57,019 nucleotides of DNA from an uncultured Gammaproteobacteria bacterium (lineage in GTDB: Bacteria > Patescibacteriota > Patescibacteriia > VMEV01 > CAYQCH01): assembly GCA_964352335.1 (NCBI GenBank), contig CAYGRO010000006.1:4903-61921 (forward strand), in the 5' to 3' direction. Shown piece after piece: positions 10,567 through 43,729 of the stretch (position 1 is its first letter; every line of letters begins with the position of its first letter). The position numbers were made by a program, and so were the translations under genes. The notes under the pieces were generated by a model, which saw only the letters and a program-made list of their open reading frames with translations, was not told the DNA's origin and made no database searches.

Positions 10567-11838
10567 ATGGATAATCTCACGTTTCAGCAAGCGGCCGCAA
10601 AGCCCAAAAAAACTCAGAAACACTTGTTTTGGGCTGTTTTTCTTACGGTTTGTTCCCTTTTTACTGCTTTATTGATTGGGCATAGAGTTATTACACATTT
10701 TTCAGAATCGATTCACCCGCTTTTATCAGAAAAGCAAGAGTTTTATAGTTATTTTAAAAGAGATTTACTCAATGCGAGTGATTTTTTGATTATCGAAGAA
10801 ATAGTAACAAATTTTCTCTCTAATTCGGAATCAGATACGATAGAGCTATTATCCACTATTATGCAAGAAGCACCTGTAAACACAGGGATATTTACCATAA
10901 ACAGCCAAGCATATTACTTTGTTGAAGATAAACAATGTCAGAATCAAGAAATGCTCTCAAAAATATTTGTGAAATCGGATCTTGCTAGCAAGGCTGTGGA
11001 AGAAATGGGGAATTGTTATACTGTTTTTTCACAAAAACCACTGTCAGCAATAGATTTTGGTCAATCATCTCGTAAATTACTTAAAATAAAGCGAATGCTT
11101 ATAAGTAAGAACCCAAGCTCTGCCGTCTTTGCCCAACCAAATGGTAATGAGCCTTTAATTGGGTTTATTCATTCGTCTGCCGATCAATTAGTACTAAGAA
11201 TAGGGGAATTAACGAGTGATTTTTCTACGGAATTAGGCACAAAAGAAGTGAGGCAATCCTTATTTAGTCTCAATCAAGTGAGCCAAGATAGATCATCTGT
11301 ACCAGTCTATTCTCAAAAATTAACTGAATTAGGTGGATTTGCTCAGTTTTTTGGAGAATTTACTATCTATCAAGGGGATTTAGTAAATTTTACTGATGAT
11401 AAATATAATTCAACGATAGCTTGGTCTTGGTTAGGAAGTAGTACAGATGCAAATCGACTAAAAGAAGAGATTTTAAACGAATTGGCAGATAAGTATCCTG
11501 TTGCGGTAGAACAAGTGCTTCCAGATGAAACAATTATTATGGAATTACACGAAGATAAAAATTCTTTTCTAAGTATTGTGGTGGATGAAAACGGCAATGA
11601 AAAAACGCTTTATACTTATCCAGACGGGCAAATTCAAGAGATTATTTCTGGCAATCTTGTTTCTTTTACAAAGGACGCACCTTCAGAAAGAGAAGAGATT
11701 CAAAATAATTGTGTTTATCCAGATGCTTTAGGCTTTGGACATATTTCAAATGACTTTATCCACACTAATCTGTGGAAAACAGCTCTATTTAGCTATGATC
11801 AGCAAAAAATGATCCTATGCTTTGTAAAGAACACATAA
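10567..11838 (+). CDS. Hypothetical protein with an N-terminal membrane anchor
   Basis: 423-aa ORF with one N-terminal hydrophobic helix; no recognised motif. Confidence 0.75.
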   Translation: MDNLTFQQAAAKPKKTQKHLFWAVFLTVCSLFTALLIGHRVITHFSESIHPLLSEKQEFYSYFKRDLLNASDFLIIEEIVTNFLSNSESDTIELLSTIMQEAPVNTGIFTINSQAYYFVEDKQCQNQEMLSKIFVKSDLASKAVEEMGNCYTVFSQKPLSAIDFGQSSRKLLKIKRMLISKNPSSAVFAQPNGNEPLIGFIHSSADQLVLRIGELTSDFSTELGTKEVRQSLFSLNQVSQDRSSVPVYSQKLTELGGFAQFFGEFTIYQGDLVNFTDDKYNSTIAWSWLGSSTDANRLKEEILNELADKYPVAVEQVLPDETIIMELHEDKNSFLSIVVDENGNEKTLYTYPDGQIQEIISGNLVSFTKDAPSEREEIQNNCVYPDALGFGHISNDFIHTNLWKTALFSYDQQKMILCFVKNT

Positions 11839-11902
11839 CTTGTCCACAGTTATTCAGTTTTCCTAAAATTGCCTGATCACTTTCATTGTTCACTGGGGAT
11901 AA
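11756..11902. promoter_or_regulatory. Cluster of DnaA-box-like 9-mers
   Basis: TTATCCACA (11756), TGTGGAAAA (11771), TTGTCCACA (11840), TGGGGATAA (11894). Confidence 0.5.
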
Positions 11903-11957
11903 GATTTTTTTTCTCCTAATGTCAGCAAAAAAAACAGGTGTTTAACTACACTTAATC

Positions 11958-11986
11958 TTGCTCATCATGTCAAAAAATGCTATACT
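11958..11986 (+). promoter_or_regulatory. Sigma70-type promoter
   Basis: TTGCTC-17 bp-TATACT with a TGn extension. Confidence 0.7.
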
Positions 11987-11989
11987 TGT

Positions 11990-12664
11990 TACAGAAATAA
12001 AAACAAAAAACAGCGAAGCTTCTATCTTAAGCTTCAAAGAGGAGAATCCATTTTACGCTCTTTTAGAAAACCAACGTAAAGTACAAAAGTAAAGAGATTG
12101 CGTCTGAACCTATGTCTGCGCGCAACAATCATGCTTGTCGTGACACGTACAATTTATAGTCATGATTGTTAAAGATTCGGATACAGCCCTCTCTACTGTT
12201 CTGCAATGTAAATCAGCCTCAACCTGGTTTACCAAATAAAAATACAAGAGAAAAAATAAAATATGAGGCCAAAAAGTGCTTCAACAGAGCTCTAATCGTA
12301 TTTAACGATAAGAGTATTGACCTAGGGGACGTATCAGGTCAGTCACTCTTCTGTAGGAGTTGTTGTGGAGACAAAGAAGTTTATAGCTTCAACATACTGC
12401 CTCAGAATGGTGGAGAACGACTGAATAGCTCATACGATGAGCATCAATCCAATCGAGGATTATACATTCGGTCATATTGTTTCACAATCGGTGCAAACAA
12501 TAGCTCAAGAGTTGAGACGAGCAAGAGTACACACACAAAACAGTACATTTCTTATGCAAGAAGGATCATAATTTCGCTATTGTGACCCCCCTCGCATAAG
12601 GAATGGGACCGTTTTACTAGCGGGTCTAGCCACATCCATGGGCTTATAGGCCCGCTTTTCTTTT
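11990..12664 (+). ncRNA. Candidate large structured ncRNA (RNA A), family not recognised
   Basis: Lies between a promoter and a terminator-like hairpin (AGCGGGTCT/AGGCCCGCT + T tract). More than ten consecutive stems are visible, and there is no convincing ORF. Confidence 0.65.
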
Positions 12665-12736
12665 GTCTCATTCCGCTCTATAATAGGAAAGAGCCAAATT
12701 AAAGGCTCATTTTGCTATCTCGCTAACTTTAAACAT

Positions 12737-13093
12737 ATGGAGAAAGAAATACTTGAACAAATCAAACAAAAGCTGAATGCTAGAAAAAAAGATCTAGAAA
12801 CAGAACTTGCTAAAATCTCAGATCAGCATGGCGATGCAACTTATGAAGATATTGAAGATGATGAAGATGTAAATGCTCAAGAAGTAACTCAATATTCAGA
12901 TCGACTCTCACTTGTTGCCGAGCTAACAAAAGGATTAGAAGATGTAGATAAGTCTTTGAAAAAAATTGAAGAAGGAAAATACGGTATTTGTAAATATTGC
13001 AAGAAAGAAATCAACCCACAACGATTACTCGTGCGACCTTCCTCTGGGTCTTGTATTGAATGCAAGGCGGCGCTGCAAGGAGAAACAAGATAA
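12737..13093 (+). CDS. TraR/DksA C4-type zinc finger protein
   Basis: Coiled coil followed by YGICKYC...RLLVRPSSGSCIEC. Confidence 0.92.
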   Translation: MEKEILEQIKQKLNARKKDLETELAKISDQHGDATYEDIEDDEDVNAQEVTQYSDRLSLVAELTKGLEDVDKSLKKIEEGKYGICKYCKKEINPQRLLVRPSSGSCIECKAALQGETR

Positions 13094-14763: not shown

Positions 14764-15810
14764 ATGGAACAAATTACCGCAATCAACCTGGGCTACGGTT
14801 TGGGGACAAAGGACTGGCAAGATGAGGCTTGTCGGGCTGTTATGGCTCTTGAGCATGATGGGGCCATCTCCGTTTTTGGTCATGGAGTGGATGACCAACT
14901 TCGCATGCGGATGGTAGATGTCATTTCACATGTCTACCGTGCTTCTACGGAGGTTCAACAACAGTTTGTGAGGCCAGACCTTTTCTACCAGGTTGGGCTG
15001 ACACCTCCAAATACGGAAACACATCGGCAGCATGAAGGGTGGGACCTTTTGCCAAAGCAGCATCGCCCACTAACAAATTTCGACGGCAAGGATGAGCACA
15101 AGTATCGGTGGTTTGATCCCATCGGCCCTGTCGACGTGATTCCCTATAAACCCGTCACCCCAGATATCCCAGGTTTTCGTCAAAGCATGGTTCGATGGGG
15201 GGAGGCGCTGGCATATACCGTGGTCAAAGACCGCCTAGCCAAGATGATCGCCTTTGGCTATGGGCTTCCTGTCGACTACTTTGAAGAAATACTTGCGCGC
15301 GGAGCTCATTTGGTGGCACCCACGGGCACGGAGCTTGGTCGGTGTCTGGAAATGCTCGCTGAGGAAGAGGTGCCCTTCATTAAGCTCGCAGGATTTCACA
15401 ACGACCTCAACTGGGGGACGATTCACGGTCGCGCCACTATCCCTGGGCTTTGGATTTGGACAACCGAGGGCAAGCGCGTGCTTGTCCGAATCAAGGAAGG
15501 TCATTTGCTTTTTCAGGTTGGTCAACAGCTTGCTGCTCAAACGGCTTACAGGATGAAGGCTGGTTATCACGAAGTGGTAATTACGCCCAAGCTGGGAAAA
15601 GAAATCCAAGCCAAGCACCAAGGACAAACATTTGCGTGGAGGATCGGGTCTACCGTATTTGTCACTGCAGATCGTCAAGCTTCTCTGGTGCCGGACGAGA
15701 AGCTCTTCGCAGGGCTAGATCGAGAAGCTCTCATCTTGTCCTACCCTCATCTCTCGATGAGGGTAGACGAGCAAATGCAGGACGAGTTCTCGAAAATCTC
15801 GTTCGCATAA
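14764..15810 (+). CDS. 2-oxoglutarate/Fe(II)-dependent dioxygenase, isopenicillin N synthase-like fold
   Basis: HxD (GFHNDLN), distal His (AGYHEVV) and a WRIGS segment. SD AGGAG upstream, GC-richer than its neighbours, own terminator at 15818-15850. Confidence 0.8.
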   Translation: MEQITAINLGYGLGTKDWQDEACRAVMALEHDGAISVFGHGVDDQLRMRMVDVISHVYRASTEVQQQFVRPDLFYQVGLTPPNTETHRQHEGWDLLPKQHRPLTNFDGKDEHKYRWFDPIGPVDVIPYKPVTPDIPGFRQSMVRWGEALAYTVVKDRLAKMIAFGYGLPVDYFEEILARGAHLVAPTGTELGRCLEMLAEEEVPFIKLAGFHNDLNWGTIHGRATIPGLWIWTTEGKRVLVRIKEGHLLFQVGQQLAAQTAYRMKAGYHEVVITPKLGKEIQAKHQGQTFAWRIGSTVFVTADRQASLVPDEKLFAGLDREALILSYPHLSMRVDEQMQDEFSKISFA

Positions 15811-39586: not shown

Positions 39587-40193
39587 ACTCACACGAAATT
39601 TGAAACGTCTTCTCATCGAGTTAGACCTCTTTCTCTAAAAGCATTTATGCCTAAACGACTTAAAAGTGAAGACTCTTTATAAGAGTAATAACTAGCCTGC
39701 ATAATCTTTACGAGAAAAAAAGATTATACGGCTCACAGCCGTTTTTTTTGTTCCTCAAAATTCAGTAGATATAAGTAGGTACGAAGCACGCTTCGTGCCC
39801 TACTATCTGTTTACTGATTAGCTCGTTGACAACTGAATATTCTACGAAATTATATATATGATCTAAAACGTCATGTGCATCTTTACAGTACATCAAGTAC
39901 AAAAACTACAAATGATAAGTGCTACATTCTCTTGAGCATCACAAAAATTCTTTTTGTGGTTGTCTCAAGAAGGGTAAATGAGTGGATGCCTCGACATCTA
40001 GAGACGATGAAGGACGTGACAGCCTGCGAAAAGCTTCGGTTAGGTGGCTAGTAACCTATGACCCGGAGATGTCCGAATGGGGAAACCCCGCTCTTGTTAT
40101 AAAGAGTGAACTTATACTGAATACATAGGTATAAGTGGTGAACCTGGGGAATTGAAACATCTTAGTACCCAGAGGAAAAGAAAACAGTAAAAC

Positions 40194-40261
40194 CCATTAT
40201 AAATCTGGTTTGTAGAGACGTAATATTTTACGACTCGACAAGATAACCAGATTTATAATGG
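40194..40261 (+). other. Hairpin insertion (IVS/expansion) in 23S near E. coli position ~230
   Basis: CCATTATAAATCTGGTT/AACCAGATTTATAATGG arms inside the normally short GAAAAGAAA...GATTCC segment. Confidence 0.8.
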
Positions 40262-40607
40262 ACGTGATTCCCTTAGTAGTGGCGAACGAACGGGGAACAG
40301 CCTAAACCTTATCGGTGTGTCTTTTTGTGAAGTATGAGATTTATCTTATATCGATCAATTTGATTAAAGGATTACACCGTTGCCGATTTGGTGTCATGAG
40401 ACCTATTGTTAGAGCGTGTAATAGCTCTAGATAGGATAGCGGAAATATAGTTGAAGTTCCTGGAATCGGAACGCCAGAGAGGGTGACAGCCCCGTACACG
40501 AAATATTTTCTCTACCTATGAATACGGTTCTCGAGTACAGCGGGACTCGCGAAATCCTGTTGGAATTTGGGGTGACTATGCTCTAAGGCTAAATACTACT
40601 AGATGAT

Positions 40608-40644
<37 letters not shown>

Positions 40645-40819
40645 CACCCCGGTGAGGGGTCGTGAAATAGACCTGAAACCATTTACTTACAAGGAGTCGG
40701 AGGGCCTTATGGCCTGACGGCGTGCCTATTGAAGAATGAGCCAACGACTTTATTCTGTGTTGCCTGTTTAATTCCTTATAGGAAGAAGGCTCAGTGAAAG
40801 CGAGGCTTAACCGCCGAAA

Positions 40820-40885
40820 TGAGATAAATAGAATTTTGTACAGACGCAATTATTGCGTCTGTACTTAAAATTTCTATTTATCTCA
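40820..40885 (+). other. Hairpin insertion (IVS/expansion) in 23S near E. coli position ~650
   Basis: TGAGATAAATAGAA/TTCTATTTATCTCA arms around the perfect palindrome GTACAGACGCAAT-T-ATTGCGTCTGTAC. Confidence 0.8.
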
Positions 40886-42151
40886 ATCTGCAGCACAGAT
40901 AAGACCCGAAGCCGGGTGATCTATCCATGGCCAGGTTGAACCTCTATGAAAATAGAGGGGAGGACCGAACCCACTCGCCGTGCAACACGAGGGGATGAGT
41001 TGTGGATAGCGGAGAAATTCCAATCGAACCCGGCAATAGCTGGTTCTCCCCGAAATAGTTTTAGGACTAGCCTGTAATTGTCCCCTCTGGGGGTAGAGCA
41101 CTGTTTGAGGTTCGGGCCTTCGGGTACCGTCCACAGACAAACTCCGAATACCAGAGGACTAAAGTTACAGAGTTACACCATGGGGGCTAAGCTCCATTGG
41201 TGAAAAGGGAAACAGCCCAGATCGCAAAATAAGGTCCCTAAATCTTCGTTAAGTGTGAAAAGTGGTGAAAAGACTTATACAACGAGGAGGTTGGCTTAGA
41301 AGCAGCCATCCTTTAAAGAAAGCGTAACAGCTCACTCGTCTAGTCTTTTTGCGCTGAAAATGTAACGGGGCTAAACGAAGTACCGAATTTGCGGGTTCAA
41401 ATCTAGTTTACTAGATATGGGCGGTAGGGGAGCGTTCCAGTCGGCATTGAAGCCCAAACGTGAGAATGGGTGGAGTGACTGGAAGTGAGAATGTTGGCAT
41501 GAGTAGCAAAAATGCGGGTGAGAACCCCGCACACCGTAAACCCAAGGTTTCCTGGGCTATGTAAATCAGCTCAGGGTTAGTCGGTCCTAAGGCAAGGCCG
41601 AAAGGCGTAGTCGATGGACAGCAGGTTAATATTCCTGCACCACGGTGATAACTGATGGAGTGACGCTTGATTTGGGTCTCTGCGCAATTTTGGTTATGTG
41701 CGTTGGGGCAAGCAACTGGTGGTATAGGAAAATCCGTACCGCATATACAGGAGTTTGCATCGCAAGAGGAAGCCTTCGGGTGGAATCAAGAGAGACGAGA
41801 GTTGAGCCAAGAAAAACTTCTAGGGCTAATTATCAACGTGTCCGTACCGTAAACCGACACAGGTGGGTGAGGCGAGTAGCCTCAGGTGCACGAGAGAAAC
41901 ATGGTTAAGGAACTCGGCAAAACAGCGGTCGTACCTTCGGTATAAGGCCTGCCTACGTTCTTCGGAATTGTAGGCCGCAGCGAAAGACTCCAAGCGACTG
42001 TTTACCAAAAACACAGGTCCCTGCTAAAGCGCAAGCTGATGTATAGGGGCTGATGCCTGGCCAGTGTCCGAACGTTAAGAGGAGAGGTGAATCACTTCGG
42101 TGAGGCAGCCTTGAATCCAAGCGCGGATGAACGCCGGCGATAACTATAATC

Positions 42152-42557
<406 letters not shown>

Positions 42558-42818
42558 AAGTTCCGACCTGCACGAACGGCATAACGATTTGGAGACTGTC
42601 TCAACCATGTACTCGGCGAAATTGCAATGCGAGTAAAGATGCTCGCTACGCGTAGCAGGACGAAAAGACCCCGTGAAGCTTTACTACAACTTGATATTGT
42701 CATATTGTCTCAACTGTTCAGCATAGGTGGGAGCCTTCGGGCACCAGTGAGATACCACCCTGTTGTTATGGTATGACTAACCTTAGGCCGTGAAACCGGC
42801 CACGGGACAGTATCTGGT

Positions 42819-42850
<32 letters not shown>

Positions 42851-43073
42851 AAGTAACGGAGGCGTTTACAAAGGTTGGCTAGTTCCGGATGGAAATCGGG
42901 ACGATAGTGTAAAGGCATAAGCCAGCTTTACTGCAAGACAGACTCGTCGCGCAGTTACGAAAGTAGAACTTAGTGATCCGACCGTTCGATATAGGACGGC
43001 GGAAGCTCATCGGATAAAAGTTACTCCGGGGATAACAGGCTGATTGTGCCCAAGCGTCCATAGCGACGGCACA

Positions 43074-43110
<37 letters not shown>

Positions 43111-43144
43111 GTGAAGAAGCTCCCAAGGGTTTGGCTGTTCGCCA

Positions 43145-43196
<52 letters not shown>

Positions 43197-43621
43197 CTAT
43201 CCGCTACGCGCGTTAGAAATTTGAGGGGCCCTTTCTCTAGTACGAGAGGACCGAGAAGGACGAACCTCTAGTGTACCAGTTGTTCCACCAGGGGCATTGC
43301 TGGGTAGCTACGTTCGGGTTAGATAAGTGCTGAAGGCATCTAAGCACGAAGCTGTTCCCAAGATTAGATTTCATATCCTCCTAGGAGACTACTAGGTTGA
43401 TAGGCTGCAAGTGTAAGTACAGTGATGTATTAAGCTGAGCAGTACTAATGGATTTGAGACAACCACTAAACGAAGTTTTAGTGATTGTTTAAAGAGAATA
43501 CATAAATTGCACTTTCAAACGTAGTTTGTAAAATGCGCATGACGTTTTCGATTGTTATATATCGAAGTAGAATATTCATCACCTCATTGGAGCGTGGTAT
43601 CTCAATTTTGAGATCTCGTGC

Positions 43622-43729
43622 TCTGGTGCTCCTTCCAGAAGGGTCCACCTGTTCCCATCCCGAACACAGCAGTTAAGCCTTCTAGGGCCGATGGTAGTGC
43701 TTTTGCGCAAGAGTAGGTAGGTGCCAGTT
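43622..43729 (+). rRNA. rrf: 5S rRNA
   Basis: CTGGTG...CACCTGTTCCCATCCCGAACACAGCAGTTAAG...GCCGATGGTAGT...GAGTAGGT..GTGCCAG. Confidence 0.95.

Follow-up and report, generated by a model that had tools for sequence, protein, structure and literature searches.

Several large structured RNAs of bacteria, among them OLE, ROOL and GOLLD, have no known function and combine a dense multi-helix fold and a long-range helix with covarying loop-loop contacts and an unstructured internal linker. In ROOL, a covarying kissing loop was shown to be intermolecular, and the RNA has a disordered linker (PMC12286853). The RNA gene described here shares these features and, at ~670 nt in the member studied, their size. 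It lies in a stretch of 57,019 nucleotides (referred to as the window) of an assembly deposited as 'uncultured Gammaproteobacteria bacterium' and placed by GTDB in the Patescibacteriota, a lineage of the candidate phyla radiation (CPR). A preliminary description, made from the sequence of the window alone, had proposed an unrecognised stand-alone large structured non-coding RNA at this place. The proposal was supported: neither a strong match to an Rfam family, nor a lack of covariation or folding stability, nor a coding signal was found. We conclude that this is very probably a real structured RNA gene and that it forms a new family matching no described RNA family.

The RNA gene occupies part of an 898-nt gap (11839-12736) in which no other credible gene was seen. 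Downstream of the gap follow a dksA-like gene, lspA and a Na/Ca exchanger gene, all on the + strand. We searched this region against Rfam 15. At the gathering thresholds the window gave four matches, none of them in the region, and at E ≤ 10 the segment 11800-12800 gave four noise matches, the best with 16.2 bits against a cut-off of 319.4. Among relatives, 20 loci yielded one tRNA and nothing else at gathering, and nine loci yielded only three noise matches to microRNA models at E ≤ 1. The OLE, ROOL, GOLLD, HEARO, raiA, riboswitch, T-box and group I/II intron models had no Rfam 15 match on the RNA. The earlier statement that no RNase P, tmRNA, signal recognition particle (SRP) or T-box core is present agrees with the absence of such Rfam matches and with full-length genes elsewhere in the same genome for RNase P RNA (RF00010; C2:105439-105892; 167.9 bits) and tmRNA (RF00023; C1:150763-151161; 131.1 bits). 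ARAGORN detected no tmRNA in the window.

Four further candidates were rejected. SRP RNA was dismissed because no SRP-clan model matched the RNA and neither SRP RNA nor Ffh was detected: RF00169 and RF01854 each matched 0 of 41 genomes, and PF02978 and PF00448 were not found in the window's assembly, nor PF00448 in five further class genomes (two of them single-contig). Searches for Ffh/FtsY-type domains in 151 phylum genomes gave short P-loop-level matches only, E. coli Ffh as a tblastn query had no match at E < 1 in the assembly (which contains 910 N), and FtsY was not detectable there. Since annotations of CPR genomes usually include ffh and ftsY, the missing SRP parts may be a gap in the available data rather than biology. 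The Bacillus gene order ileS-ylyA-lspA raised the possibility of a T-box relic from an ileS leader; no T-box model matched and no consistent T-box sequence was seen by eye. An Hfq sponge was discarded for the window's genome, in which no Hfq domain was found. As for an RNA carried by phage or another mobile element, neither several copies, nor a variable location, nor a phage context was found, and blastn against phages gave no match for the RNA, plasmids being outside that search. Among the papers listed by literature searches, none paired these lineages with such an RNA, which may nevertheless have been published: motif lists in the supplements of comparative-genomics papers could hold it.

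Relatives were identified mainly by gene order. When the gap was compared with 60 relatives by blastn, five genomes gave matches, all just 32-60 nt long, which we took as chance. The nhmmer search envisaged in the preliminary description, run with a profile of the four-sequence family, yielded nothing in other families except one weak block. The dksA-like gene was present in 54 of 61 genomes, and an ORF-free gap (free of open reading frames) of at least 450 nt lay upstream of it in 23 of 29 relatives' loci. Anchoring a search on synteny in this way recovers RNA families of fast-evolving lineages that escape both BLAST and Rfam.

We aligned the gaps of four members of the window's family (G000, the window's own genome, to G003; GC content 0.38-0.50). 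The alignment showed a conserved promoter, conserved blocks and a conserved terminator, with variable insertions between the blocks, and 42 of its 98 predicted pairs carried a compensatory double change. The loop of hairpin H1, GCCTCAACC, was invariant in all four members, and several pairs of the long 3' hairpin were double-changed among them. The architecture, common to most genomes of the class, starts with one to five DnaA-box-like sites and a TTGAC(A)-17-TGnTATAAT promoter. A 5' domain of 0 to ~240 nt leads into block B (consensus CUCUUCUCUACUnUUC), often followed by H1, and then into the A-rich strand AAAAAYAAAAA. Next come at least one hairpin with ..ACC at its end and block D (AAGAAYGGUAGAGAAG), often with hairpin Ha behind it. 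The RNA closes with a 3' domain and a GC-rich terminator, U run included; the 3' domain measured 110-200 nt in most members for which a terminator was found and 377 nt in one. Typical members are 330-450 nt long and those of the window's family 540-675 nt, the latter enlarged by extra sequence inserted into the 5' domain and the H2 region and also between D and Ha. The size of ~670 nt given in the preliminary description therefore holds for the window's member; the conserved core is only ~330-450 nt, and the rest consists of window-family insertions. On DNA contigs of close relatives from two metagenomes, the RNA was ~95% alike (29 differences and 4 gaps in 563 nt; 18 and 7 in 548 nt), and dksA on the same contigs was ~88-89% alike (39 and 7 in 348 nt; 41 and 2 in 331 nt).

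The long-range helix between B and D comprises 13-14 bp and was recovered in most loci by a sequence-free algorithm. It was evaluated on a MAFFT alignment of 60 sequences (13 pairs, 780 cells) with 500 shuffles. Paired cells amounted to 93.5%, compared with 81.8% in the shuffles and 45-60% when the partner strand was slid by 1-3 columns, and double-change cells numbered 100 against 26.7 in the shuffles. Ten of the 13 pairs had changed on both sides, a count that 37 of 500 shuffles reached; for the other four of the five measures, 0 of 500 shuffles reached the observed value. The three central pairs (A-U, C-G and U-G) were almost invariant. RNAalifold on MAFFT alignments kept only the B/D helix because sequence-based alignment misaligns hairpins; across families it produced no consensus structure of the H1, H2 and Ha hairpins or of the 3' domain.

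Sequence complementarity predicts a loop-loop helix of 5-7 bp between H1 and Ha in many members, including that of the window. In the window's family, CUCAAC (12218-12223) is complementary to GUUGAG of Ha, and both motifs are invariant in four of four members. Other lineages carry other complements, namely GCCGAC/GUCGGC, GCUGGC/GUCAGC, UUGGCC/GGCCAA, CCAGCA/UGCUGG, CUUGGGA/UUCCAAG and ACUGAC/GUCAGU. The final rule compared the first hairpin downstream of B with the first one downstream of D and yielded 42 distinct H1/Ha loop pairs. Their score with their own partners was 178.5, compared with 140.0 ± 5.7 for permuted partners, and 0 of 20000 permutations reached it. At least five contiguous loop-loop pairs were present in 21 of the 42, with 13 different complementary pair types. 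An earlier use of the first-hairpin rule was matched by 4 of 20000 permutations, and a looser hairpin caller by 47 of 5000. An early, cruder test with loops derived from minimum free energy (MFE) structures found at least five pairs in 0 of 28. The longest run between whole segments reached at least six pairs in 12 of 28 compared with 4 of 28, and at least five pairs in 19 compared with 18. Covariation, one of the checks set out in the preliminary description, was strong in the family alignment, the B/D helix and the H1/Ha loops.

Some further sequence relations were observed in individual loci. In L054, L067, L068, L074, L025 and L036, the 5'-end motif uAGUUCUUUa recurs right after block D, as seen by eye; the copies are the same sequence twice and are not complementary, and the repeat may be a protein-binding site. 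In L013, L055 and L062, the 5' arm of H1 has a second complement ~36 nt past block D (GGUCUU/AAGACC; GGUUUUUG/CAAAAACC). By eye, the 5' arm of the terminator recurs upstream in L057, L013, L022 and L036, and this copy, too, is complementary to the terminator's 3' arm. These extra complementarities of the H1 arm and the terminator arms are possible alternative pairings.

Folding of the RNA in the window was as dense as the preliminary description had claimed. The free energy was -190.4 kcal/mol, and 20 dinucleotide shuffles averaged -146.9 ± 7.4 (z -5.9); for the reverse strand, z was -4.3 (20 shuffles). The GC content was 0.38-0.41 in the gap and ~0.33 in the flanks. Forcing the family architecture, with B/D paired and both loops free, cost 2.3 kcal/mol relative to the free MFE. 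All stems listed earlier were located, and all but one formed in the unconstrained MFE structure and/or the constrained fold (Table 1); not all of them are conserved. Stem 12052-12057/12075-12080 formed in the MFE structure only, the constrained fold pairing this stretch differently. The segments GCCTCA and TGAGGC (12216-12221/12264-12269) are complementary, yet their stem formed in neither fold, and TGAGGC sits in an insertion unique to the window among its family. The terminator reported earlier corresponds to a terminator-like hairpin (12639-12654) with a T run, and terminator-like sites numbered five against 1.0 expected in shuffles. The proposed promoter is supported by its extended -10 and by the promoters of relatives; a consensus scan missed it because its -35 is weak.

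The distribution of the RNA was examined with two covariance models in which only B/D was modelled as structure: R1, a model of the core from 15 seeds, and R2, from 60 seeds. R1 matched 48 of 151 class genomes, once each, and 2 of 151 genomes of a phylum-wide sample, 144 of which lie outside the class. R2 matched 89 of 151 class genomes with one strong match each; the few weak extras (≤ 33 bits) were mostly partial. These prevalences are lower bounds, because the models miss known members, among them, under strict filters, the window itself. The RNA is conserved across a class of CPR bacteria in single copy. Records with the locus include Uhrbacteria, Falkowbacteria, Magasanikbacteria, Buchananbacteria and 'Patescibacteria group'; the members of the four named groups we take to belong to class ABY1 (GTDB). 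Many contigs with the CPR-type locus are titled 'uncultured Gammaproteobacteria bacterium', and single ones Lysobacteraceae or Bdellovibrionales; these titles look like mislabels.

The RNA gene is associated with DnaA boxes. We counted TTWTNCACA, which we take to be the DnaA box from its textbook consensus, in the 450 nt upstream of block B at 73 unique loci (32.3 kb). There were 122 matches, compared with 4.2 in shuffles (maximum 12) and 0 in the same length of RNA and downstream sequence. Boxes were present upstream in 65 of the 73 loci, and the perfect TTATCCACA in 62. In the 1.16-Mb assembly containing the window, the boxes at 11756 and 11771 are the only TTWTCCACA pair within 300 nt among 45 sites.

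The locus is not a replication origin. An oriC reading was rejected on GC skew, which shows no switch where the DnaA boxes cluster: on contig C6 of the window's genome, the cumulative skew climbs both before and after the locus. In G086, a complete genome of 886 kb in a single contig, the skew reaches its minimum at ~685-700 kb and is uniformly positive around the RNA, which lies at 791.7 kb. The dnaA gene is on another contig in the window's genome and 11-185 kb away on the same contig in other genomes. A GCTAA-N-TTAGC-like palindrome was also found within 300 nt upstream of block B in nine of 73 loci (L057, L059, L065, L067, L068, L073, L103, L132 and L019; 100-290 nt upstream of block B). 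In the loci read by eye it sits downstream of the DnaA boxes and ahead of the -35; its half sites numbered 75 upstream and 34 in the RNA and downstream sequence. This palindrome may be a second operator.

The reading that we favour, as reasonably likely, is a new family of structured RNA genes that are transcribed independently and whose products act in trans. Synthesis of the RNA would start at a dedicated sigma-70-type promoter, the -10 of which is extended, and stop at an intrinsic terminator of its own. The B/D helix would close a loop bearing H1, the exposed A-rich strand with its AAAAAY repeats and one or more further hairpins, and Ha, just 3' of D, would dock on the H1 loop in many members. 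Such a rigid scaffold could present the A-rich strand as a surface to which a protein or a U-rich nucleic acid binds. Binding of DnaA to boxes 40-250 nt upstream of the promoter would couple RNA synthesis to the replication-initiation status, and the position before dksA-lspA would reflect synteny and not cis regulation. Taken by parts, action in trans appears fairly likely and control by DnaA probable to a slightly smaller degree, and that the A-rich strand is a functional surface is a tentative suggestion.

Expression was examined in metatranscriptomes. Two runs from a single study each contained one contig of ~165 nt, ~96% alike, that fell on 12365-12524; nothing was found on the flanks in the same two runs, and the contigs carry no end or strand information. 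They are a weak hint of expression.

A bolder version of the favoured reading is improbable in our estimate. It sees a class-wide, DnaA-wired housekeeping RNA of ABY1-type CPR bacteria in which the loop-loop contact is intermolecular and an RNA-only homo-oligomer, of the kind reported for ROOL and GOLLD, displays or encloses the A-rich strand. The H1/Ha contact could join molecules, given that a covarying kissing loop of ROOL is intermolecular. On this reading, the conservation of the RNA within the clade would be comparable to that of RNase P RNA or tmRNA, and the RNA would be a cell-cycle-coupled machine in organisms where no Ffh, FtsY, SRP RNA, 6S RNA or Hfq (the last in the window's genome) was detected in the available data.

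Several points weigh against the favoured reading. Sixty-two of the 151 class genomes had no R2 match, and both models are crude and miss known members, that of the window's genome included. The two metatranscriptome contigs are the sole evidence from RNA libraries and could be DNA carry-over, the transcript start and end are inferred, and the window's promoter, with its weak -35, was not called by the consensus scan. Because the sequences are related, the shuffle tests overstate independence. For the loop-loop contact, the hairpin caller, windows and rule were fixed after examples had been seen. The contact is not universal, because H1 and Ha are absent in a subgroup of Uhrbacteria-type sequences and 29 of 73 sequences had no callable hairpin pair. 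The assignment of the boxes to DnaA is a consensus match from general textbook knowledge. The orientation of the RNA relative to dksA, discussed below, belongs here too.

The RNA could instead be a cis-acting leader of dksA-lspA that senses a ligand, protein or tRNA and gates terminator read-through into dksA. We consider this unlikely. Among 80 loci of named records retrieved by way of their dksA gene, R1 matched 41, and in every one of these the RNA immediately precedes dksA in the same orientation, as it does in most relatives; this fits a leader too. The co-orientation is partly built in by the selection, and since the loci were chosen by dksA, it cannot weigh against a leader either. From the end of the core to the start of dksA the distance is 205-486 nt, and the repeated terminator arms of several members recall a terminator/antiterminator pair. 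The TATAAT that the preliminary description had taken as a promoter of the dksA-like gene is present, one base from the position given (12679, not 12678), and support for such a role is confined to some of the loci, just five of 34 having an extended -10 ahead of dksA. That number nevertheless exceeds the shuffle mean of 0.7, and -10-like hexamers are enriched as well (18 of 34 against 8.9). No riboswitch or T-box model matched. Displaced copies argue against a leader. In G059 the RNA lies between two opposite-strand genes, in G012 it converges on lspA/dksA, and in G039 a 200-aa ORF separates it from dksA; all three keep boxes, promoter and terminator. A cis-regulatory leader should always have a co-oriented regulated gene downstream, and in G059 and G012 there is none. 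These contexts therefore favour a trans-acting RNA over a leader.

A 6S/Ms1-like regulator that binds RNA polymerase and is encoded beside DksA appears very unlikely. The adjacent DksA-family gene and the strong housekeeping-type promoter would suit it, as would the absence of 6S RNA (RF00013) from 40 class genomes; this non-detection says little because the model found only five of 14 control genomes. The fold shows neither a rod with a central bubble nor a stem closing the 5' and 3' ends, and a conserved stem of that kind is impossible because the 5' domain varies from 0 to ~240 nt. That the DNA is the functional unit, a locus titrating or reactivating DnaA or a secondary origin with incidental transcription, is in our view highly improbable. 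The boxes in 65 of 73 loci and the single box pair of the window's assembly speak for it; the boxes lie outside the conserved RNA, no skew switch occurs at the locus, and the compensatory helix changes indicate selection on RNA and not on DNA. Hardly credible is a coding or decayed coding sequence, in the form of the 139-aa ORF at 12166-12585 or of small ORFs. The ORF exists, and the preliminary description had regarded it as non-coding. That judgement held: its best tblastn E was 0.14 over 156 loci, relatives have no matching ORF, and most indels were not multiples of 3 (between 9 of 14 and 13 of 16 gaps in the family alignment). Of the ORFs of at least 30 aa in the gap, the five that were examined (39-139 aa) had no protein-level match in the 156 loci (best E 0.05-0.14), and the four of these that were scanned against Pfam gave no match. 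A small ORF after the A-rich strand was rejected, its ATG not being conserved by eye. We thus retain the trans-acting RNA gene as the preferred explanation, with the features collected in Table 1.

Table 1 Features of the RNA gene and its surroundings in the window
Feature	Position	Strand	Basis or remark
Gene for 423-aa protein, no family match	10567..11838	+	usual upstream neighbour; homologue upstream in same-family genomes
DnaA box, perfect TTATCCACA	11756..11764	+	consensus match
DnaA box-like site TTTTCCACA	11771..11779	-	consensus match
DnaA box-like site TTGTCCACA, one mismatch	11840..11848	+	
DnaA box-like site TTATCCCCA, one mismatch	11894..11902	-	kept in family alignment
Promoter: weak -35 TTGCTC (11958-11963), extended -10 TGcTATACT (11978-11987)	11958..11987	+	aligned with relatives' promoters
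RNA gene, putative start to end of terminator U run	11993..12664	+	start inferred from -10 box
Variable 5' domain (0-240 nt in relatives)	11993..12189	+	lengths in relatives; predicted stems
Stem listed earlier	12015-12021/12029-12035		in fold(s)
Stem listed earlier	12124-12133/12161-12170		in fold(s)
Block B, 5' strand of long-range B/D helix	12190..12203	+	
Hairpin H1, stem 12208-16/12224-32, loop 12217-12223	12208..12232	+	constrained fold
A-rich single-stranded linker	12233..12263	+	AAAAAYAAAAA nearly invariant
Expanded hairpin region replacing H2, several stems, partly window-specific	12264..12402	+	alignment, fold
Stem listed earlier	12318-12323/12335-12340		in fold(s)
Block D, 3' strand of B/D helix	12403..12416	+	14 of 14 positions pair with B, including G-U
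Inserted three-way junction (12419-12473) and hairpin (12475-12502)	12419..12502	+	reduced or absent in relatives
Junction listed earlier, enclosing 12428-12433/12437-12442 and 12446-12450/12457-12461	12419-12426/12466-12473		in fold(s)
Stem listed earlier	12476-12482/12495-12501		in fold(s)
Hairpin Ha; GUUGAG 12511-12516 complementary to H1 loop	12503..12522	+	AGTTGAG invariant in 4 of 4
Long 3' hairpin (CUUAUGC.../...GCAUAAGG)	12546..12605	+	alignment columns 627-648 pair with 657-678
Stem listed earlier	12549-12557/12594-12603		in fold(s)
Intrinsic terminator: compound stem 12619-12656, then U run	12619..12664	+	conserved GC-rich stem and U run in relatives
TATAAT, candidate promoter of dksA-like gene	12679..12684	+	
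dksA/yteA-like zinc-finger gene	12737..13093	+	usual downstream neighbour

Elsewhere in the window, the segment 14700-15900 has a GC content of 0.48-0.57 compared with ~0.33 for the genome and contains, besides an ORF at 14764-15810 (348 aa; only a weak dioxygenase-N match), several overlapping ORFs; the segment could be a foreign gene or another structured element. A 23S rRNA gene (39958-43466) carries a group I intron (42172-42487; 75.1 bits) and a 5S rRNA gene lies at 43622-43729; the Rfam scan found no 16S rRNA in the window.

CPR bacteria (Patescibacteria) make up a large share of bacterial diversity and are mostly uncultured, with tiny genomes in which long non-coding stretches are costly. 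An RNA of 330-670 nt kept in single copy across a class would be a new large structured RNA family, and its short members would offer a compact natural RNA for structural work. It would also be, to our knowledge, the first such RNA with a gene systematically tied to the replication initiator, and this link gives a testable handle on cell-cycle-linked regulation in genetically intractable organisms.

Compared with OLE, ROOL and GOLLD, the RNA described here occurs in CPR bacteria and does not match their Rfam models. It is chromosomal, single-copy and syntenic, has no phage match, and its typical members are shorter; we know of no counterpart to the DnaA boxes in those families. The raiA-motif and HEARO RNAs are likewise conserved structured RNAs usually found beside one particular gene, whereas this RNA has no Rfam match to them, another architecture and another lineage. 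With RNase P RNA, tmRNA, SRP RNA and 6S RNA it shares one copy per genome, a strong promoter, clade-wide occurrence and a length of 300-450 nt. It differs from RNase P RNA and tmRNA, which have their own full-length matches in the same genome, and from SRP RNA and 6S RNA, whose models did not match it. We know of no DnaA-box-associated structured RNA gene, and literature searches, which were made without DnaA terms, found none. Like the E. coli loci datA and DARS, the DnaA-box clusters of B. subtilis and DnaA-regulated promoters, the present loci carry clustered consensus DnaA boxes far from the origin and beside a promoter; unlike there, the boxes here are tied class-wide to one RNA gene.

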